DNA of 64,000 nt from Candidatus Omnitrophota bacterium (GCA_020341815.1 CP070837.1:1300575-1364574); one strand, 5' to 3'; shown: positions 9,981 to 46,212, counted from the stretch's first letter. Notes: generated by a model not told the origin, from the letters alone. A program made the numbers and translations.

Positions 9981-10095
9981 TGAACCCCGCTCTTCCAAAA
10001 CATCACGCCTTGCATAAAAGATATGGGTGAAGGCGGTAGGAGGAAGGATGGGGATAAGGGTTTGGCATTACAAAGAAAGGAAGGGCGGGGTGAAG
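9981..10095 (+). repeat. MITE/REP-like inverted-repeat element, copy A (TIRs TGAACCCCGCTCTTCC ... GGAAGGGCGGGGTGAAG).
   Basis: It starts 2 nt after the upstream stop codon. Its interior is ~90% identical to copy B. The 3' terminus carries the GTG (10090) used as the bioY start. Confidence 0.7.
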
Positions 10096-12270: not shown

Positions 12271-12385
12271 TGAACCCCGCCCTTCCAAAACATCATACTT
12301 TGCATAATAGATATGGGCGAAGGTGGCAGGAGGAAGGATGGGGATAAGGGTTTGGCATTGCGAAGAAGGGAAGGGCGGGGTGAAG
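12271..12385 (+). repeat. MITE/REP-like element, copy B.
   Basis: It begins 3 nt after the bamD stop. The TIRs are TGAACCCCGCCCTTCC / GGAAGGGCGGGGTGAAG. The GTG at 12380 is the lptE start. Confidence 0.7.
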
Positions 12386-14118: not shown

Positions 14119-15759
14119 TTGTCAAGTATGGACGAAAATAAATCCCTGATAAAATCCACACGGGCAATCAGCGAGGCGACCTTTGCCAGCCGCATCCTGG
14201 GCTTTATCCGCGATGTTATCATCGCCCGGCTTTTTGGCACAGGCGTGCGCGCCCAGGCCTTTGTGGTGGCCTTTAGGATTCCTAACCTCTTGCGCAGCCT
14301 GGTGGGTGAAGGCGCCACAAATAGCGCCGTAGTGCCTGTCCTGGCCCGCCTGAATGAGCGGGGTAAAAGAGAGGAATTCTGGCAGGTGGCCAACTGCCTG
14401 TTGAATATCTTGATAGTAGTGCTGGCGGTCTTAACCTTACTGGGTGAGCTGCTTGCCCCGATTATCGTGCGCGCCATTGCCCCCGGCTTTATGAAGGACC
14501 CGCAGAAGCTATACCTGACTATACGGCTGACCAGATTTCTATTTCCTTATATTCTTCTGGTGGGCCTCTCCGCCTATGCGATGGCGGTATTGAACTCTCT
14601 TAAAAGCTTTGCCCTGCCAGCGCTTGCCCCCAGCATGCTTAATATCGCCCTGATTACCAGCGCCTTGATTTTCTGCCCGCGCTTAAAGGAGCCGGTTGAT
14701 GCCTTAGGCATAGGGGTGTTAAGCGGAGGGGTTCTGCAGTTAGCGGTCCAGGTGCCCCTGCTTCTCAAAAAGGGCCTGCTTAAAAAAAGAAGCTTTAGTT
14801 TTTTTCACCCCGCCCTTCTAAATACCACGCCTTACATAGGAGATGTGGGCGAAGGCAATAAAAAGAAGGGCGGGGTTCACCCCCGGGTAAAGGAGATGGG
14901 CAGGCTCTTTCTGCCGCGCACCTTAGGCATTGCAATATACCAGATTAATCTTTTTGTGGATACTATCTTTGCCTCTTTAACCTTTATAGTGGGTGAGGGC
15001 GCCCCGGCGGCCTTTCAGTATGCCAATCGCCTGGTGCAATTTCCCCTGGCCTTATTCGGCATAGCCTTAGCCCAGGCGGCACTGCCTGCTATGTCGGGCC
15101 TGGCCGCGCGCAAGGACTTTGCCCAGATGAGAAGGACGCTTTCCTTTTCTCTGCGCAGTGTTTTTACGATGATGCTGCCGGCCACGGTGGGGCTTATGGT
15201 GTTGGCACGCCCCCTGGTTAAGGTGATATTCGAGCGGGGCACCTTTAGCAGCTATTCTACGAACATCACCTCTTTTGTGCTTTTATTTTATTGTCTGGGG
15301 CTTACCGGCTATGCCGGCATAAAGGTGCTGGCCAGCTATTTCTACTCCCTGAAAGACACCTTTACCCCCAGTAAGGCAGCAGCCATTGCCCTGTTAATCA
15401 ATGTTATCTTAAACTTCCTTTTGATGCGGCCCTTAAAAATGGGGGGCCTGGCTTTGGCTACGGCAATCTCGGTTACAATTAATTTTGGCTGGCTTCTATT
15501 TGCCATGCGCAAGAGAATAGGAAAAATAGAGGGGCTTTTTGCTGCGCTGGGCAGGATTGTCTTGGCCGCCTCTATTATGGGGGCGGCTTTGTGGTTTGGC
15601 CTCTATCGCAGCGGGTTCCTCTGGGGCAGCGGGCTTATGCTTGCCTTTAAATTGTGCGCCTCTATTGCGCTGGGCGTATTGGTTTATTCGGGAGCCCTGA
15701 AGTTGCTTTCGCCTAGTGAGGCCGGGATATTTATCAGATGGATATTAAGGAGAAAATAA
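14119..15759 (+). CDS. murJ: Lipid II flippase MurJ, with a ~79-bp repeat element inserted in-frame.
   Basis: MurJ/MviN motifs ('RIPNLLRSLVGEGA', 'FLPRTLGIAIYQINLFVDTIFAS'). An extra ~25 aa ('SFSFFHPALLNTTPYIGDVGEGNKKKGGVHP') is encoded by the repeat copy at 14805-14883. Confidence 0.8.
   Translation: MSSMDENKSLIKSTRAISEATFASRILGFIRDVIIARLFGTGVRAQAFVVAFRIPNLLRSLVGEGATNSAVVPVLARLNERGKREEFWQVANCLLNILIVVLAVLTLLGELLAPIIVRAIAPGFMKDPQKLYLTIRLTRFLFPYILLVGLSAYAMAVLNSLKSFALPALAPSMLNIALITSALIFCPRLKEPVDALGIGVLSGGVLQLAVQVPLLLKKGLLKKRSFSFFHPALLNTTPYIGDVGEGNKKKGGVHPRVKEMGRLFLPRTLGIAIYQINLFVDTIFASLTFIVGEGAPAAFQYANRLVQFPLALFGIALAQAALPAMSGLAARKDFAQMRRTLSFSLRSVFTMMLPATVGLMVLARPLVKVIFERGTFSSYSTNITSFVLLFYCLGLTGYAGIKVLASYFYSLKDTFTPSKAAAIALLINVILNFLLMRPLKMGGLALATAISVTINFGWLLFAMRKRIGKIEGLFAALGRIVLAASIMGAALWFGLYRSGFLWGSGLMLAFKLCASIALGVLVYSGALKLLSPSEAGIFIRWILRRK
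14805..14883 (+). repeat. MITE/REP-like element, copy D (short variant), in-frame within murJ.
   Basis: The TIRs are TCACCCCGCCCTTC ... GAAGGGCGGGGTTCACCCC. The interior is homologous to copies A/B but with a ~45-bp deletion. Confidence 0.6.
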
Positions 15760-15871
15760 ACCCCGCCCTTCCTAAAAAACGTAAGTTAGGTATCAAAAAA
15801 AGAATTAGAGGACTTTACCTTTGCCAAAGAATATATGTAGACTAAGCAGAAAAATGAAGGGCGGGGTGAAG
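15757..15871 (+). repeat. MITE/REP-like element, copy C (divergent interior).
   Basis: It starts at the murJ stop (TAAACCCCGCCCTTCC) and ends GAAGGGCGGGGTGAAG. The uvrC ATG 15854 and GTG 15866 lie within it. Confidence 0.65.
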
Positions 15872-19038: not shown

Positions 19039-19301
19039 GATGTTTCCTTTTCTTCTTCTTCCTTATGTTCTTCTTGCCCTAACATTCGAAATCAGGGGCA
19101 CAAGCCGCGCAATGGACCGCATCTGAATCGATGAGTGCCATATCTTCGATGGGTTTTATTTTAATATGTGGAATACATCTTTTCTGGATAGTTTTCAGTA
19201 ACTTTAGTCAATTATTTCATATTTCTCAGGCCTTGTCAAGAAAACCTTGCTTATTTTCTGCCTTTTCTTTATAATGCCACAAGAGGTAGATTCTGTTTAA
19301 A

Positions 19302-19637
19302 ATGAAAGAATATACCCCCTTCCAACGCAAGGTTTTCAAAGCAGTTTCGGCAGTTCCCTTTGGCCGGAGGCGCAGCTACCAGTGGGTGGCCAGGCGAATA
19401 GGCATGGGCCTTGCTTTGAAGAAAAACAAAGACTTATTTATTGTGCCCTGCCATAGGGTTGTAATGGCCGATGGCGCCCTCGGCGGTTATGTTTTGGGTA
19501 AAAAAATGAAGAAAATCCTTTTAGGTTTGGAGGAGAGATTGACGGGGGCAAGGGCCATCTTTCATCGGCCCTTAGAGGAGCTGCTCAAGGTAAAGGGTAT
19601 TGATAGAAAAGCCGCAAAAAATATTCTCAAATATTAG
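19302..19637 (+). pseudogene. Chimeric ORF: a paralog of the methylated-DNA-protein-cysteine methyltransferase DNA-binding domain fused to a uvrC 3' fragment.
   Basis: Residues 1-~80 are ~85% nt-identical to the intact ogt-like gene at 20500 and retain PCHRV, but 'RPHAARAV' is deleted. From 19540 the sequence matches uvrC 16832-16864 and then uvrC ~17165-17230 (…GKGHLSSA…LKVKGIDRK…). The junction falls at an ATTGAC microhomology. Confidence 0.5.
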
Positions 19638-20364: not shown

Positions 20365-20499
20365 AAAATTATTATTTTTATCCATAACATCCGAAATAAC
20401 CGGCCAAAAAGCGTAGGGGACGGCCGGCTGGCCGCCCGATTTATTATAATTATATATTGTAGGGGCATGGTTTCCGCGCCCGTTAATTTTTTCTATAAA

Positions 20500-20775
20500 A
20501 TGAAAGAATATACCCCCTTCCAACGTAAAGTCTTTAAAGCGGTTTCGACAATCCCCTTTGGCCAGAGGCGCAGTTACCGGTGGGTGGCCAAGAGAATAGG
20601 TCGCCCTCATGCCGCCAGGGCCGTGGGGCTTGCCTTGAAGAAGAATAAAGACCTGTTTGTCGTGCCCTGCCACAGGGTAGTAAGGGCGGATGGCGCAATT
20701 GGGGGTTATGTCCTGGGTGGGGAAATCAAGAAGATGCTTTTGGATTTGGAGAAGAAATTGACTCAAAAGGCTTAG
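20500..20775 (+). CDS. ogt: Methylated-DNA-[protein]-cysteine S-methyltransferase, DNA-binding/active-site domain only (Ogt/Ada-C-like).
   Basis: 'TPFQRKVFKAV...RPHAARAVGLALKKN...VVPCHRVV' carries the PCHR active-site motif. About 90 aa, with no N-terminal domain. Confidence 0.65.
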   Translation: MKEYTPFQRKVFKAVSTIPFGQRRSYRWVAKRIGRPHAARAVGLALKKNKDLFVVPCHRVVRADGAIGGYVLGGEIKKMLLDLEKKLTQKA

Positions 20776-29553: not shown

Positions 29554-30225
<672 letters not shown>

Positions 30226-30354
30226 TATTCAGTATCTTGTATTTAGTAAAATAGAAAATAGTAAAAACACTTATAAATATTTAAAGATTATATAAAAAAG
30301 TTTTTGACTAGATACTAGATACGAGCGACTAGCGACTATTATTAGGGAGGTAAA

Positions 30355-41381: not shown

Positions 41382-41507
41382 CACTGAGAACACTGAATTG
41401 TTAACACTGAGAACACTGAAAGAAAAACTTCAGTGGTTTCAGTGGTTTCAGTGACAAAAGAAAAACTTCAGTGGTTTCAGTGGTTATTTTTCAGTGGTTT
41501 CAGTGAC
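41380..41507 (+). repeat. Complex direct/inverted repeat array: 2x AACACTGAGAACACTGAA, then 9-bp periodic TTCAGTGGT units.
   Basis: Repeats at 41380-97 and 41403-20 (A units), then 41429-55 and 41467-507 (B units). B is an imperfect reverse complement of A, and a ~33-bp tandem duplication lies within. The RBS AAAGGAGGT follows directly. Confidence 0.65.
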
Positions 41508-41520
41508 AAAAGGAGGTAAA

Positions 41521-42921: not shown

Positions 42922-42933
42922 AAATAAAAAAAA

Positions 42934-42980
42934 GCCCCCCCGATGCTTTTTATAAAAAACAATCGGGGGGTTTTTATTTT
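42934..42980. terminator. Bidirectional intrinsic terminator between the convergent aldolase-like gene and lptG.
   Basis: A 9-bp GC stem (CCCCCCGAT…ATCGGGGGG) flanked by an A-run on one side and a T-run on the other. Confidence 0.65.
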
Positions 42981-44065
42981 GGTGCGCGGCGCATCAGCAT
43001 TATGGCGACGGTGGAGAAGAGGAAATTGGCAAACCACGCCGATATAATCGGCGGCAGAGTTCCGCCTTTACCTAAAGCAAGGCTTAGGGCCTCTACCGTG
43101 TAATAGAAGAAGGCAATGACTACCGAAAGCCCGATACTGGCTACTTTTCCGGTGCCTTGCGTAGAAAGGGCAAAAGGGATACCCAAGAATATAATTATCA
43201 AACTGACAAAGGGAAAAGAAATCTTATAATGCAAATCCACCAGCAGCTTCTGCACAATCTTGGCTCCGCTTCCCGAGAGCCTCCTGATATATTCTCTTAA
43301 TTTCTGGTAATTCATAAACTCAGCCGAGGCCTCCCGCCTTAGGAAGTCCTTGGGCTTTTCTTCGATACCGATGAGCATCTTCTTGAAAAAGGCCGGCTCG
43401 GCATTTTCCTCTTCCTTATCGTTAAAATTGTAAACAACGCAGTCATTGAATGCCCACTTATTTCCCTGCCATTGTGCGCTTTTGGCCTGAATCTTGGCGA
43501 TAACCCGTTCCTCATTATCCTGCTCCAGGATAGTTATTTCTTCAAGGAGGTTGCTCTTGGTGTAGAATTTGCGCACATGAATGAGGCGGTTGTGCGCCCC
43601 GTAAAGAGCGATATTTTCCACTATTCTCTCTTGGAGCTGTGCCTTTTCTTTATCAAGATGTTCTTCTTTTACGGTGGCCGAAACAAGGTTTGCCTGAGGA
43701 ACGATTTTATCGTTAATCACCAGCGTAGCCATGCTGATAACTATCCCCAGGAAGAAAAAAGGCAGCACCATTCTCCAGATGCTTAAGCCCGTTGCTTTAA
43801 GGGCGATTATTTCATTGTATTTACTGAGATTTCCCAGTATATAGAGGGTGGAAAGAAGTGCTGCGATAGGCGCGGTGCGCACAAAGATTATCGGCAGAAA
43901 GGCCCCGTAATACTGAAGAAGCACTGACCATTCCACATGGTGTTTAAGGATATCCTCCAGGCGGCCGCAGAGGTCAATAACTACATAGAGGCTAATAAAC
44001 ACCGTCAGGCAGTAGAAAAAGGGCACCAGGAATTCTCTGACTATATAGCGGTCGATTATTTTCAC
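42974..44065 (-). CDS. lptG: LPS export ABC permease LptG/LptF family (YjgP/YjgQ).
   Basis: 'KIIDRYIVREF' N-terminus with six TM helices. The GTG start at 44063-65 lies inside repeat copy E. Confidence 0.7.
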   Translation of the reverse strand: MKIIDRYIVREFLVPFFYCLTVFISLYVVIDLCGRLEDILKHHVEWSVLLQYYGAFLPIIFVRTAPIAALLSTLYILGNLSKYNEIIALKATGLSIWRMVLPFFFLGIVISMATLVINDKIVPQANLVSATVKEEHLDKEKAQLQERIVENIALYGAHNRLIHVRKFYTKSNLLEEITILEQDNEERVIAKIQAKSAQWQGNKWAFNDCVVYNFNDKEEENAEPAFFKKMLIGIEEKPKDFLRREASAEFMNYQKLREYIRRLSGSGAKIVQKLLVDLHYKISFPFVSLIIIFLGIPFALSTQGTGKVASIGLSVVIAFFYYTVEALSLALGKGGTLPPIISAWFANFLFSTVAIMLMRRAPK

Positions 44066-44196
44066 CCCGCCCTTCCTTTCATCTCATCGTAATCTTAGGT
44101 CCAATTTTAACTTTGCTAGACTGTCTCTGCATTGCTTTATAGCTTTTACCCTTGCCCTTAATTGTAAGTATGCGGTTTTAGGAAGAGCGGGGTTCA
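44062..44196 (-). repeat. MITE/REP-like element, copy E (between lptF stop and lptG start).
   Basis: The TIRs are TCACCCCGCCCTTCC ... GGAAGAGCGGGGTTCA with a unique interior. The GTG-bearing terminus faces lptG. Confidence 0.6.
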
Positions 44197-44201
44197 TCGT
44201 T

Positions 44202-45290
44202 TTATCTCTTATTGGTATGGAAAATCAGAATAAGGCCTGCTGCGGTAAGAGCAATATTGGCCAGCCACATACTCAAACCCGGATAGACTAATCCCCTGAC
44301 GGAAAGGACCTCTCCCGTCAGAAAGAGTACATAATAGGCAACGAATACCCCGATACTTAAGCCGATACCGACGAACTTCTCCCGCCTTCTGGTGCAGATT
44401 GCCAGGGGCAGCCCCAGGATAACAAAGGCAAAGGTTGAAAAGGAAAAGGAAAGCTTTTTGTTTATCTCGGTAACGATAGGGGTAACCTCGATGTTCTCTT
44501 TTTGCAGCTCGTGCATCTTCTGGCGCAGCTCGCGCACGCTCATATCCTTTAATTTTTTCTGCATATTTTCCGTATCGTCGGAGATATCCAGGGTCAGATA
44601 ATAGGTCTTGAAATTGAGCTTGTAAAAGACGCCGGGGTCTTTGGGGTTAGGTTCGTCGCTTGAGCCGTTTATTAATTTCAGTTTTATGATATCTTTTTCC
44701 GGAAGCGGCAGGAACTCCCCCTCGTTGGCAATAATGGTGCGCGTGGCTTTTCCCTCCTGGGGCTGATAAATTCTTATATTACTGAGCTTGTTCTGGTGAA
44801 TTCCGTAAATGAAGATAATGTAATTCTGGAAGCTGCGGATAAAGGTGCCGGCCTCAAGAAATGCTGCGGGAGTCTTCATGCCGATCTGCTTGACGATTTT
44901 TCGTGATGCGAATAAGGCCCGGGGCTTCAGTTTATCGTTAATGGGGATAGAGGCAAGTGAAGCCACCAGGCCCACTATGATTATGGGAAAGCATAACCTG
45001 TAGAGATTAATTCCGCTGGCCCTGATAGCGACAATCTCATTATCGGCGGAAAGCCTGCCGATAGTCAGGAGTGTGGCGCTGAGGATGGAAAGGGGCAGCG
45101 CATAAGTTAAGATATTGGGGATAAGCAGAAAGATTAATTTGACCACCAGCCCCAGGCTCACCCCTTTATTGACTACCAGATTAAAGAGGTTTACCAGACT
45201 GCCGATAAGCATTATAAAGATAAGAATAGCCAGCGACAGGATAAACGGCCAGAATAATTCTTTTAATAAATATGTTCTCAGGATTTTCAC
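44202..45290 (-). CDS. lptF: LPS export ABC permease LptF/LptG family.
   Basis: The start is proposed at GTG 45288-90 ('VKILRTYLLKE') inside repeat copy F. The ORF-track extension to 45332 would translate repeat sequence. Confidence 0.65.
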   Translation of the reverse strand: MKILRTYLLKELFWPFILSLAILIFIMLIGSLVNLFNLVVNKGVSLGLVVKLIFLLIPNILTYALPLSILSATLLTIGRLSADNEIVAIRASGINLYRLCFPIIIVGLVASLASIPINDKLKPRALFASRKIVKQIGMKTPAAFLEAGTFIRSFQNYIIFIYGIHQNKLSNIRIYQPQEGKATRTIIANEGEFLPLPEKDIIKLKLINGSSDEPNPKDPGVFYKLNFKTYYLTLDISDDTENMQKKLKDMSVRELRQKMHELQKENIEVTPIVTEINKKLSFSFSTFAFVILGLPLAICTRRREKFVGIGLSIGVFVAYYVLFLTGEVLSVRGLVYPGLSMWLANIALTAAGLILIFHTNKR

Positions 45291-45363
45291 CCCGCTCTTC
45301 CTTTCTTCCCAATACCACTTGCCTATCCCCAATCCTTCCGATGTTTAGGAAGGGCGGGGTTCA
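45287..45363 (-). repeat. MITE/REP-like element, copy F (between comF stop and lptF start).
   Basis: The TIRs are TCACCCCGCTCTTCC ... GGAAGGGCGGGGTTCA. Confidence 0.6.
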
Positions 45364-45368
45364 TTTTT

Positions 45369-46133
45369 TTATGCTTTGCGCGCTAAAGTAAATACCTCAA
45401 TTCTATTTGCCCCTGCTTTATGCAGTGCTTTTGCGCACTCATTTACCGTGGCGCCTGTTGTCAGGACGTCATCCACCAGTAAGACGTTTTTATTTTTAGG
45501 GACATTTTTATTTTTGACCTTAAAGGCGCCCTTAATGTTCTTAAGCCTTTCTGTGCGCGAGAGGTTAATCTGAGGCTGGGTAGCTTTAATTTTAATGAGC
45601 GTTTTATTATGCGCTTGTTTCGAGAAGGCCTTAGCTAAAGATTCGCTCAAGATGCCTGCCTGATTAAACTGCCTCCGGCGCTCTTTTGCGCTGTAAAGAG
45701 GCACAGGCAGAATCAAATCCACTTTTCTCATATCCAAAAACCTGCCCGCAAAATCGATCATCAATTCCGCCAGCGGCCCGCTTAAAGATAATTTACTGTT
45801 GTATTTAAATAGATGGATGCATTCTTTAATTACGCCCTCGTATATGCACGCAGAGTGCGCTTTCTTAAAGAAATACCCGGAGGCTTGACAATCCTTACAG
45901 ATAAATGCGTGATTTTGGCTTTTTGCGGGCCTGCCCGCCTTCATGCTGGCGGGCAGGTGCCTGGCGCATATGCGGCAAAAAGGCGGCAGATTGAACTTAA
46001 TCTTGTTCCAGCATATTTCACATAAGGGCTTATCGCTTAAGGGGTTTAGCCTCGCTCTGCATAGCAGGCAGGATAAAGGATAAATCAGATTTATAAAACT
46101 CCTTATCCAGGGCTTAAACACCGTGCTTGTCAA
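45369..46133 (-). CDS. comF: ComF family protein (phosphoribosyltransferase domain).
   Basis: N-terminal Cys-rich zinc finger and a C-terminal PRT motif 'LLVDDVLTTGATV'. Confidence 0.65.
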   Translation of the reverse strand: MTSTVFKPWIRSFINLIYPLSCLLCRARLNPLSDKPLCEICWNKIKFNLPPFCRICARHLPASMKAGRPAKSQNHAFICKDCQASGYFFKKAHSACIYEGVIKECIHLFKYNSKLSLSGPLAELMIDFAGRFLDMRKVDLILPVPLYSAKERRRQFNQAGILSESLAKAFSKQAHNKTLIKIKATQPQINLSRTERLKNIKGAFKVKNKNVPKNKNVLLVDDVLTTGATVNECAKALHKAGANRIEVFTLARKA

Positions 46134-46212
46134 TATACCATTTTATGCGTATCCTGTCAAGAAAATGTCTACTTGCAAAGAGGAGGGCTTTGTGGTAGGA
46201 TAACAACGAAAT

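Follow-up and report, generated by a model that had tools for sequence, protein, structure and literature searches.

The window, by which we mean the whole 64,000-nucleotide stretch of DNA that was analysed, contains on its minus strand a comF-like > lptF > lptG operon in which each lpt gene is preceded by a copy of a short repeat element, E ahead of lptG and F ahead of lptF, the core of each element being flanked by two copies of a target-site duplication (TSD):

46132-46160, minus strand: promoter-like site TTGACA-17-TATATT, upstream of the operon
45369-46133, minus strand: comF-like phosphoribosyltransferase gene, first gene of the operon
45286-45363, minus strand: element copy F with both TSD copies, core 45290-45359
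44202-45290, minus strand: lptF coding sequence, 362 aa, GTG start at 45290-45288 (read below as chimeric)
44061-44196, minus strand: element copy E with both TSD copies, core 44065-44192, TSD TGAA on the coding strand
42974-44065, minus strand: lptG coding sequence, 363 aa, GTG start at 44065-44063 (read below as chimeric)

Both products were identified as LptF_LptG proteins (PF03739) by Pfam profile searches (E 1.5e-79 for lptF and 2.7e-86 for lptG), with full-length matches over profile positions 1-353, and profile positions 1-2 fall on residues 6-7 counting from the GTG in each protein. The initial annotation had placed both starts at a GTG on the edge of an element, and we found these, as well as all its other features, where it had put them when the sequence was re-read. 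The lptG GTG (reverse complement of 44063-44065) is the first start codon past an in-frame TGA seven codons upstream, with no alternative start codon between the two. The lptF GTG (reverse complement of 45288-45290) is also the start given in the NCBI annotation of the source genome, whose 362-aa product (P0001) is identical to ours. Homology and annotation support the use of GTG in both genes.

The promoter-like site upstream of the operon has 11 of 12 matches and a TG extension, and is a consensus match only. Inside the elements we observed no strong promoter-like site, the best being a 9 of 12 match (44082-44055) overlapping the gene-proximal end of E, and promoter-like counts in the element region were no higher than in shuffles. 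A role as intrinsic terminator was also considered and rejected; no element scored as terminator-like, the sense-strand hairpin being followed by GAAAAU rather than a U-run.

The stop codon of the comF-like gene (TAA, 45371-45369) lies 9 nt ahead of the core of F. On the plus strand E is flanked by TTCA at 44061-44064 and 44193-44196, and F by TTCA at 45286-45289 and 45360-45363. The terminal inverted repeats (TIRs) of E read CCCCGCTCTTCC on the mRNA 5' side and GGAAGGGCGGGG on the 3' side, and the following smaller features were located within or across the two elements:

44071-44079, minus strand: Shine-Dalgarno (SD)-like AAAGGAAGG, 5 nt ahead of the lptG GTG, in the TIR of E that adjoins the gene
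45297-45304, minus strand: SD-like AAAGGAAG, 6 nt ahead of the lptF GTG, in the TIR of F that adjoins the gene
44084-44197, minus strand: stranded ancestral lptG ATG (44197-44195) and its 37-codon ORF across E, in frame with lptG
45323-45364, minus strand: stranded ancestral lptF ATG (45364-45362) and a 13-codon ORF, MNPALPKHRKDWG, with stop TAG at 45325-45323
45328-45340, minus strand: internal decoy motif GGAAGGATTGGGG in F, which by prediction could take the place of the SD-containing 3' arm in pairing with the 5' arm
45330-45332, minus strand: TTG opening the ORF-track extension of lptF (MGIGKWYWEERKSGVK...), rejected as a start codon

The SD-like sequence is conserved in the wider family as GAAAGGAAGRGCGGGG-TGA, and SD-like pentamers are enriched at gene starts in the window. 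The 37-codon ORF across E stops at a TGA (44086-44084) 18 nt ahead of the lptG GTG. Read-through from the stranded ATG as the true N-terminus was ruled out by this in-frame TGA in E and by the TAG after 13 codons in F.

Comparative genomics of the lptFG region, a check that the initial annotation had proposed, showed empty junctions with a single copy of the target. Four syntenic loci (L109-L112), all arranged as comF-like > lptF > lptG < fba and with LptF 75-81% identical, contained no element. Their lptF-lptG spacers measure 1-12 nt, and their comF-lptF spacers 3-6 nt in three cases and 159 nt in L112. The genes start with ATGAAR or GTGAAG, except lptF of L112 (ATGAGA), and the empty sites read, for example, TAAaca-ATGAAGATCC and TAAaatt-ATGAAAATT. 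Deleting the core of F and one TGAA from the window gave TAAAAAA-ATGAAAATCCTGAGA, while the same operation on E gave TAAAACG-ATGAAAATAATCGAC, both matching the orthologues. Excision also restored ATGAAA starts and the orthologous N-termini MKILRTY (LptF) and MKIIDRY (LptG), the LptF orthologues beginning MKILR(T/K)YLLKEL and the LptG orthologues MKIIDRY or MKLIDRY. From this restoration we infer that the elements inserted into the TGAA of an ATG-AAA start. Presence/absence polymorphism of the element within one species was not seen.

These empty sites alter the reading of the element ends. What had been described as two variants of the terminus, GGGGTGAA (also GGGGTGAAA) and GGGGTTCA, are instead the two copies of the TSD, which covary and are present once in empty sites. 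Judged by these junctions, the terminal four bases are duplicated target (TGAA on the coding strand, TTCA on the other) and not element sequence, and the new start is a chimera, its G being the last TIR base and its TG duplicated gene sequence. The earlier placement of the GTG inside the repeat therefore holds for the G only. Similarly, the end facing the stop codon does not simply lack a GTG, as had been noted; the original ATG lies stranded there, beyond the element, as ATGAACCCC. Insertion into the start codons themselves had been missed.

Four further copies were observed elsewhere in the window, all on the plus strand:

9981-10094, plus strand: copy A, core 9985-10090, TSD TGAA, at the start of bioY (GTG at 10090)
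12271-12384, plus strand: copy B, core 12275-12380, TSD TGAA, at the start of lptE (GTG at 12380)
14804-14879, plus strand: copy C, core 14808-14875, TSD TTCA, inside murJ
15757-15870, plus strand: copy D, core 15761-15866, flanks TAAA/TGAA, new uvrC GTG at 15866

The paired-terminus pattern found exactly six elements in the window (0.00 expected), and the 14-nt terminal motif occurred 12 times (1.18 expected). Around E, F, A and B there are two copies of TGAA, and the orthologous empty sites have one. In silico excision of A and B gave orthologous N-termini, and that of D, which sits at the murJ stop and within the ancestral 5' end of uvrC, a rescued truncated one; the lptE product from GTG 12380 begins MKRFNFIFLLLAIAC. 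Copy C lies in the opposite orientation to its flank and is an in-frame insertion of 72 nt that adds 24 aa to a loop of MurJ and is absent from the aligned orthologues of 518-520 aa. The relatedness of the copies on longer alignment, which the initial annotation had assumed, held fully for F, which can be aligned with A and B over the whole length and derives from their type by an internal deletion of 36 nt. E shares with A-D only 17-20 nt at the ends, its interior being about 50% identical to a subfamily of 121-126 nt from other MAGs.

The ORF-track extension of lptF to TTG 45332 is entirely element sequence, and we agree with the earlier reading that it is very unlikely to be the native N-terminus, as the orthologues and the NCBI call start at MKIL. 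Translation from this TTG would give LptF a 14-residue N-terminal extension (MGIGKWYWEERKSG-), the equivalent start in A and B being an internal AGGAGGAAGG-ATG. In A, B and F no stop codon interrupts the frame between the internal start and the GTG, and in A and B a strong AGGAGG lies 4 nt upstream of the in-frame ATG, which is in a loop and unsequestered by the terminal stem. In F, however, the ATG has turned to TTG with just 1 nt between GGAAGG and the codon, and the orthologues lack the 14 residues. Nor is the internal start a family property: in most copies the frame is closed by a stop immediately ahead of ...ERKGGV, and an open 14-codon frame has about even odds by chance. The internal ATG belongs to the decoy motif GGAAGGATGGGG, and this accounts for its conservation. 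We therefore regard initiation within the element as improbable, and the chimeric GTG is retained as the start.

At least about 40 further copies were observed in other MAGs, mostly labelled Omnitrophota. The family statistics given here come from a scan for near-perfect termini and refer to the matches listed, the copies not being independent of one another. All six window copies and at least about 40 copies elsewhere end in the TIRs CCCCGCYCTTCC / GGAAGRGCGGGG. The cores measure 68-128 bp and the TIRs (CCCCGCCCTTCC...GGAAGGGCGGGG) are G+C-rich and 12-16 bp long, while the interiors are unrelated between subfamilies, have stops in most frames and hold no coding capacity of their own. The copies are multiple and dispersed, with six in the 64 kb of the window and 4-7 matching loci in each of several MAGs among the matches listed. 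The copies are single rather than tandem, with one tandem pair (L063). Neither an autonomous partner nor a transposase bearing these termini was detected in the window and 114 loci (~0.9 Mb); the same search found no solo ends, and no TIR-bounded segments of 0.4-7 kb except pairs of neighbouring short copies in the window. A phage vector was considered and rejected, as viral contigs gave no matches to the element.

The flanks of 45 family copies among the matches listed form covarying direct repeats, namely TGAA/TGAA (36), TGAG/TGAG (4) and CTGA/CTGA (1), whereas in unrelated hairpin families caught by the same pattern the flanks continue the palindrome instead. The base ahead of the left flank in these 45 listed copies is A (37) or G (8) and never C or T, which means that a start codon was always kept there. 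These flanks bear on a possible origin as REP/REPIN sequences or as IS200/IS605-derived PATEs, moved in single-stranded form by an HUH (Y1) transposase and placed beside a fixed tetranucleotide without duplication. REP/REPINs end in a conserved GTAG/CTAC, leave the target unduplicated and are associated with a RAYT gene, and PATEs have a subterminal hairpin at each end and insert 3' of a fixed tetranucleotide without duplication. The present elements resemble them in their G+C-rich palindromic ends, small size, intergenic position, conserved tetranucleotide by the hairpin and strong orientation bias. Such an origin is nevertheless very unlikely given that the same tetranucleotide stands on both flanks and changes on both together (TGAG/TGAG, CTGA/CTGA), with one copy in the empty site; that the ends form one terminal inverted repeat, CCCC/GGGG, rather than separate subterminal hairpins with a GTAG/CTAC signature; and that copy C is inverted relative to its flank.

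The tie between element orientation and downstream gene, suggested earlier for E and F, extends to 44 of 45 copies among the matches listed. The chimeric GTG opens an ORF of at least 100 codons in 35 of 41 listed copies, compared with 20.6% of 621 control GTGAR sites (p 1.2e-18), and in 22 of 48 listed copies a long upstream ORF terminates on the TGA within the left copy of the duplication, i.e. a split ATGA overlap. Gene-start copies in sense orientation within operons, together with a predicted stem that sequesters SD and start codon, could also describe resident, non-mobile intercistronic regulators (attenuators or processing sites) that evolved in place and are alike through convergence or shared regulation. 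That reading is already contradicted by the empty sites, since in four relatives the orthologous junctions span 1-12 nt and have no hairpin. Covarying 4-nt duplications flank the copies, related interiors are dispersed at unrelated genes in many MAGs, and copy C lies in frame inside murJ. Rfam 15 gave no match at gathering score in the whole window, and relaxed searching around E and F gave only JA04 (24.6 bits against a threshold of 81, E 0.82). We consider a resident origin extremely unlikely.

We conclude that E and F are very probably non-autonomous, MITE-like elements of Omnitrophota which inserted in the lptF and lptG start codons and supply a replacement translation initiation region. 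In each of lptF and lptG the ATG-AAA start provided the TGAA target, and these four bases were duplicated on insertion, which left the ancestral ATG and the stop of the upstream gene on the far side (ATGAA followed by CCCC...). Towards the gene, the duplicated TG and the terminal G of the TIR form a new in-frame GTG with the protein unchanged (M-K-I-...), and the same TIR puts the AAAGGAAG SD-like sequence 5-6 nt upstream of this GTG. With an RBS brought by the element and a new GTG, lptF and lptG stay intact, and this replacement region would be what allows copies to survive on start codons and operon stop/start junctions. The preference for RTGAR targets is inseparable from selection on where insertions survive.

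In the mRNA, the terminal repeats may pair and hide the SD and GUG. A terminal stem was predicted in all six window copies, with fold z-scores of -4.1 for E and -1.39 for F (the latter no better than shuffles), and the predicted cost of forcing SD and GUG open was 21.5 kcal/mol for E and 2.6 kcal/mol for F. Two routes to initiation can be proposed. Ribosomes ending the upstream gene and/or translating the ORF from the stranded ATG would melt the 5' arm, a form of translational coupling by unfolding or re-initiation; this would be the likely route for E and lptG, where the ORF extends for 37 codons within the element, its stop being 18 nt ahead of the GTG. Alternatively, the internal decoy copy of the 3' arm would pair with the 5' arm instead, the likely route for F and lptF, where SD exposure is predicted to cost only ~2.6 kcal/mol. 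Of 49 copies among the matches listed, 59% have a 5' arm that is predicted to pair more favourably with an internal AGGAAG-N3-6-GGGG motif than it does with shuffled interiors. We found no correlation between SD-opening cost and the stop position of the upstream short ORF (Spearman -0.11, p 0.48).

A plainer account is that the elements insert at any TGAR target with no functional design, SD and GTG being a fortunate by-product and purifying selection leaving only harmless copies. It fits most of the data, differs from the main explanation only in degree, and we consider it a possibility, if rather an unlikely one. Copy C shows that insertion elsewhere, and in opposite orientation to the target, is possible, and the 124-nt subfamily has neither the decoy nor the full-length ORF, and hence no obvious coupling device. 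Compensation in the stem at the RNA level was looked for and rejected; the sole variable TIR position is often C.A in the mRNA sense, lacks covariation support and leaves TIR mismatches uncompensated, and the stem may thus be kept at the DNA level only. Alone, however, the absence of design leaves three observations among the listed copies unexplained. Core length is 1 mod 3 in 27 of 42; in 10 of 42 the ORF from the stranded start crosses the whole element and ends at a TGA overlapping the new GTG (GTGA), compared with 2.2 predicted by shuffles; and the internal decoy is enriched. A bolder reading is that the element is no mere tolerated parasite but a mobile, self-contained translational coupler which homes to RTGAR starts and stop/start overlaps in a defined orientation, puts in place of the native initiation region a hairpin-gated SD and GUG whose accessibility is set in each copy by a decoy or relay ORF, and so rewires operons. 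We consider this doubtful. If true, transposition of the coupler would change, throughout Omnitrophota, how translation is coupled within envelope and other operons and in what stoichiometry their products are made, and might involve a start-codon-specific transposase or recombinase of a new type.

For annotation, the recurring GGGCGGGG-TGA would mark true GTG starts in these genomes, while ORF extensions into the repeat (lptF to 45332, bioY to 10027, lptE to 12323) would be artefacts and 24-residue inserts in proteins such as MurJ transposon scars. For mobile-element biology, the family offers a clear sequence-level case of a TIR built to regenerate the RBS and start codon that insertion destroys, which may permit colonisation of the gene-densest sites, ATGA stop/start overlaps, in a streamlined 1.5-Mb genome. 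It also provides dozens of natural constructs, in which a predicted hairpin-gated RBS with or without a decoy arm or relay ORF stands before different genes, that could be used for testing models of coupling (unfolding, re-initiation). Literature searches for an Omnitrophota repeat element or a start-codon-supplying MITE found no description of either.

To our knowledge, MIRUs are the only commonly cited parallel so far for an element that regenerates an RBS and start codon; we know of no sequence relationship between them and the present element, and the two are compared here by description. MIRUs were reportedly treated by Supply et al. in 1997 (Mol Microbiol 26:991). Two papers describe them as dispersed repeats of 40-100 bp in operons, gene-oriented and apparently mobile, which insert at start codons and keep the downstream gene translated, with filled and empty sites, tetranucleotide direct repeats and an ORF through the unit that overlaps the flanking stop and start codons (PMC12548453, PMC3184786). 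The present family, being short, intercistronic, gene-oriented and at start codons, with empty and filled sites and tetranucleotide repeats, is closest to these, and 10 of 42 listed copies also have a through-ORF with the -4 (GTGA) overlap. In most present copies, however, the through-ORF is absent, that of E stopping 18 nt early and that of F after 13 codons. Moreover, the present element has perfect G+C-rich TIRs, donates the SD and completes the GTG from its last base and the duplication. MIRUs are mycobacterial (Actinomycetota) and usually tandem (VNTRs), whereas the present copies are single and in Omnitrophota.

The family shares with MITEs a size well under 500 bp, TIRs, a TSD seen from filled and empty sites and multiple dispersed copies. 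Like the Neisseria Correia, pneumococcal RUP and cyanobacterial Nezha elements, it is small and non-coding, has TIRs and a fixed-length, preferred-sequence TSD, and is present in many dispersed copies that would be co-transcribed with neighbours and form a stable RNA hairpin (PMC3184786, PMC3049150). It differs from them in that its 4-bp TGAR duplication falls on start codons, its TIR holds the SD, its terminal base completes the start codon and its ends are G+C-rich rather than A+T-rich. What Correia elements are said to supply is promoters and IHF sites, not start codons (PMC3184786, PMC3049150).

Neisseria REP2 and the Borrelia IR lie directly upstream of ORFs and contain an RBS and initiation codon (PMC3184786), as does the present repeat with respect to its downstream gene. 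REP2 is presented as having no TIRs and as carrying a promoter and a complete ATG (PMC3184786). The present element, in contrast, has no strong predicted promoter and gives one base of the start codon, and its insertion with duplication is demonstrable. We know of no homology between the element and the Rickettsia RPE. Copy C, a palindromic repeat in frame in the essential murJ, nevertheless resembles RPE and in-frame BOX/ERIC-type insertions (PMC3184786). In-frame residence is exceptional here (one of six copies in the window), the typical site being a start codon.

Coupling by RNA unfolding is exemplified by rpmI-rplT, phage f1 genes VII-IX and MS2 coat-lysis (PMC12548453). The present predicted RBS would be similar in lying within a hairpin whose 5' arm may be reached by ribosomes ending the upstream ORF. 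The known structures are resident in one operon, whereas the present one would come ready-made, by a mobile element, to many operons.

The lptF and lptG genes lie on the minus strand behind a comF-like phosphoribosyltransferase gene, and a short inverted-repeat element occupies each junction between these three genes (copies F and E). Four further copies (A-D) were found in the window.

Genes at the lpt locus and element copies in the window (core, element without flanks)
45369-46133, minus strand, comF-like phosphoribosyltransferase gene
45290-45359, core of element F, at the lptF start, filling the comF-like/lptF junction
44202-45290, minus strand, lptF (LptF/LptG family, Pfam LptF_LptG)
44065-44192, core of element E, at the lptG start, filling the lptF/lptG junction
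42974-44065, minus strand, lptG (LptF/LptG family, Pfam LptF_LptG)
15761-15866, core of copy D, at the murJ stop and uvrC start
14808-14875, core of copy C, inside murJ (14119-15759); with flanks, 14804-14879
12275-12380, core of copy B, at the lptE start
9985-10090, core of copy A, at the bioY start

On the coding strand E and F both read xATGAA-CCCCGCYCTTCC...GGAAGRGCGGGG-TGAAA, and the GGGG|TGAAA boundary yields the GTG that opens both lpt reading frames, as the initial annotation had proposed. For lptG this GTG is the first possible start, since no start codon separates it from an in-frame TGA seven codons further upstream. Positions 1-2 of the Pfam LptF_LptG profile correspond to residues 6-7 from the GTG in both genes, and LptF is 100% identical to a 362-aa LptF/LptG permease called by NCBI from the same GTG on a 1.55-Mb Omnitrophota MAG contig. 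The longer lptF frame from TTG 45332, earlier dismissed as untranslated repeat, is very probably not used: the TTG belongs to F's decoy motif (an internal imperfect copy of the SD-bearing 3' arm) and is separated from GGAAGG by a single base, every close LptF homologue examined lacks the 14 added residues (the one longer homologue, P0005, has an unrelated 14-residue extension), and the same frame is stopped just upstream of ...ERKGGV in most family copies among the matches listed. Where fba and lptG converge, a palindrome flanked by runs of A and T (42926-42979; AAAAAAAAGCCCCCCCGATG...CAATCGGGGGGTTTTTATTT) looks like a bidirectional intrinsic terminator. Short repeats, both tandem and dispersed (TTTCAGTGG / TTTCAGTGGTTTCAGTGACAAAAG, 41428-41512), were observed immediately upstream of the class II fructose-bisphosphate aldolase gene and extend over its ORF-track start; the real start may be a downstream ATG (MLYRD...).

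Both the 14-nt terminal motif (12 in the window against 1.18 expected) and paired elements (six against 0.00 for a pattern requiring two termini 46-106 nt apart) exceeded chance. The proposed kinship of E and F with copies A-D held over the full length for F, which aligned end to end with A and B as a 36-nt internal-deletion derivative, while the similarity of E to the other window copies was confined to the 17-20 nt ends, its interior matching a 121-126 nt subfamily of other genomes at about 50% identity. Shared ends with unlike interiors are the usual pattern for end-defined elements. Run on 185,579 species-representative genomes, the both-termini pattern matched at least 108 loci. About 36 of the matches listed (108 loci) carry an E/F-type element, and hosts among them are mostly Candidatus Omnitrophota, with a few Elusimicrobia, Clostridia, Planctomycetia or plain "bacterium". 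The other matches listed are unrelated palindromes with the same G+C-rich core by coincidence. These include a 96-nt family (..CCCA-CCCCGCCCTTCGGGCA...TGCCCGAAGGGCGGGG-TGGG..), abundant in one Opitutales MAG and also observed in Kiritimatiellia and other MAGs, and a long-palindrome family (GAAGGAGGGCATGC-CCCCGCTCTTCG...) in Pyrinomonadaceae and other Acidobacteriota MAGs (loci of the two include L004, L005, L018, L025, L028, L043, L065, L071, L073 and L099). Both have the core 11-mer in common with the E/F element. Two other repeats were also observed in the window: an inverted repeat at 30216-30338 (36-nt arms, 78% complementary, 51 nt apart, rich in TAGTCGCTAG / CTAGATAC), and blocks of 112 and 139 nt repeated at 19291-19543 and 20489-20762 (about 1.2 kb spacing, 79-86% identity), which suggest adjacent paralogous genes.

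In the unrelated families, those of Opitutales and Pyrinomonadaceae MAGs among them, the flanks prolong the palindrome (for instance CCCA...TGGG, TTGC...GCAA); in the E/F family they are direct repeats. Among the matches listed, the flank pairs of 45 copies were TGAA/TGAA (36), TGAG/TGAG (4), CTGA/CTGA (1) and pairs with a one-base mismatch (4). Four relatives (LptF 75-81% identical) retain the order comF-like > lptF > lptG < fba, and all four lacked an element at either junction. Their comF-like/lptF junctions read TAAaca|ATGAAGATCCTCAGAACC, TAAaag|GTGAAGATCC and TAAattaag|ATGAAAATACTA, and their lptF/lptG junctions TAAaatt-ATGAAAATTATTGACCGC and TAAa-ATGAAGATTATCGAT. Deletion in silico of the core plus one TGAA gave TAAAAAA|ATGAAAATCCTGAGAACA (MKILRTY) for lptF and TAAAACG|ATGAAAATAATCGACCGC (MKIIDRY) for lptG, which agree base for base with the relatives' empty sites. 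Excision of A and B likewise gave the orthologous starts of bioY (MKALELS vs MHAFELS) and lptE (MKRFNFIF vs MKRINFIF). Covarying flanks, empty sites and excision products that match orthologues together identify E and F as insertions into the TGAA of ATG-AAA start codons, a history we consider well supported. In each GTG the G comes from the terminal repeat, as its final base, and the TG is duplicated gene sequence. The functional reading of the initial annotation was essentially right but its anatomy is corrected here: the stop-facing "GGGGTTCA variant" is not an element terminus but the second copy of a 4-bp target-site duplication (TSD) on the start codon, read from the other strand. As coding-strand sequence this copy is ATGAACCCC and includes the stranded ancestral ATG. 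In one relative, L112 (2841-3000), comF-like and lptF are 159 nt apart, and the spacer, filled with repeated GGTTAA(T/C)A motifs and a small hairpin, is an intergenic repeat of another kind at the junction held by F in the window.

The base 5' of the left TSD copy was A in 37, G in 8 and a pyrimidine in none of 45 copies among the matches listed, so a start codon always remains there. At the other edge, a reading frame of 100 codons or more began at the chimeric GTG in 35 of 41 identical-flank copies among these matches; among 621 further GTGAR sites of these loci the share was 20.6% (binomial p 1.2e-18). A long co-directional upstream ORF stopped at the TGA of the left TSD copy in 22 of 48 copies among the matches listed; in these an ATGA stop/start overlap of the classical kind has been split, and each gene retains its signals. 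In 12 further copies the distance from the upstream stop to the element was 4-19 nt. Relative to the TGAR flank, and through it to the gene, 44 of 45 copies among the matches listed shared one internal polarity. Copy C, the sole exception, is inverted relative to its flank yet sense with its host gene. Orientation thus follows transcription, in line with the link to the downstream gene drawn earlier from E and F. Insertion chemistry permits either orientation, making selection the more likely cause.

In relatives, uvrC overlaps the murJ 3' end by 22 nt; in the window (region 15733-15870) copy D occupies this overlap. The ancestral UvrC N-terminus is MDIKEKIK-SFPDSPGVY. Copy D sits at ATAAAG with unequal flanks (TAAA left, TGAA right), and the murJ TAA stop is preserved within the left flank. 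The chimeric GTG at 15866 lies seven codons downstream of the old ATG, and uvrC apparently begins there, its first seven codons lost. Here the element would go beyond relocating a start and supply a new start codon. Copy C plus one TTCA measures 72 nt and is an in-frame insert (FHPALLNTTPYIGDVGEGNKKKGGV, 24 residues) in a loop of MurJ (NCBI-annotated, 543 aa); of 13 aligned orthologues (56-75% identical), 8 have 518-520 aa and no such insert. Other Omnitrophota MurJ proteins have inserts in the same loop, of 20 residues at copy C's position (P0131) or, a few positions upstream, of about 16-24 residues (P0126, P0133, P0142), and the loop may be especially prone to in-frame insertion of repeats. 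In their ORF-track extensions (10027-10092, 12323-12382), bioY and lptE hold a strong AGGAGGAAGG-ATG within A and B, in frame with the terminal GTG and 14 codons upstream of it; element-encoded N-terminal extensions (MGIRVWHYKERKGGV-) are conceivable in principle.

The gene-proximal repeat, GAAAGGAAGRGCGGGG-TG, carries AAGGAAG 5-6 nt before the GUG. Given the 2.4-fold enrichment of SD-like pentamers at window gene starts (16.8% vs 6.9%), it is a plausible ribosome-binding site. The terminal repeats pair in every predicted mRNA fold, and the predicted cost of opening SD and GUG was 27.4 kcal/mol for D, 21.5 for E, 11.6 for B, 7.4 for A and 2.6 for F. The low costs reflect an alternative pairing of the 5' arm with the decoy (GGAAGGATGGGG in A and B, GGAAGGATTGGGG in F), which beat shuffled interiors in 59% of 49 copies among the matches listed (mean z -2.0). 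Tandem or nested copies at L063 (690-816), L031, L101 and L021, either two elements with one common TGAA or an element containing an additional perfect 3' arm (AGGAAGGGCGGGGTGAA), may indicate how the decoy originated. For strongly closed copies, translation from upstream would be the likely opener: the stranded ATG, 4-5 nt past the upstream stop, opens a short ORF over the 5' arm. This ORF has 37 codons in E (in frame, stopping 18 nt before the GTG) and 13 in F, and in D the frame from the old uvrC ATG extends past the 5' arm and through most of the interior to a stop about 25 nt before the GTG (manual count). Core length was 1 mod 3 in 27 of 42 copies among the matches listed, and in 10 of the 42 the stranded-start ORF spans the whole element and ends in a GTGA overlap with the new GTG (2.2 expected from shuffles; simulated p 2e-5, the copies being non-independent). 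A single neat mechanism is disfavored by several observations: opening cost and short-ORF stop position were uncorrelated across family copies among the matches listed, the 124-nt subfamily had neither decoy nor through-ORF, the F fold was no better than shuffles (z -1.39), and the variable repeat position is often C.A in the mRNA sense.

No Rfam family matched the element, and the searched literature held no description of an Omnitrophota element of this kind. The element agrees with a MITE in its small size, terminal inverted repeats (TIRs), target duplication and dispersed copies. No autonomous partner was found among TIR-bounded segments in the window and fetched loci, and no phage-borne copy in the viral contigs searched. 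An origin as a REP/REPIN or IS200/IS605-type element is ruled out, given that the duplication covaries. By lifestyle the nearest described case is the mycobacterial MIRU. Section 11 of PMC12548453 and section 9 of PMC3184786 describe MIRUs as apparently mobile, with tetranucleotide direct repeats and filled and empty sites, and as inserting at start codons with an internal ORF coupled to the gene at -4 nt. The full-span GTGA ORFs correspond to this -4 coupling, but the Omnitrophota element mostly lacks a through-ORF, has true TIRs, donates the SD and completes the start codon by its last base. Neisseria REP2 and Borrelia IR repeats likewise contain a ribosome-binding site and start codon but lack terminal repeats and include a promoter. 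With relevance to mobile-element biology, translational coupling and Omnitrophota genome annotation, the element is best read from its sequence as a MITE that combines a MIRU-like start-codon lifestyle with a built-in replacement initiation region.
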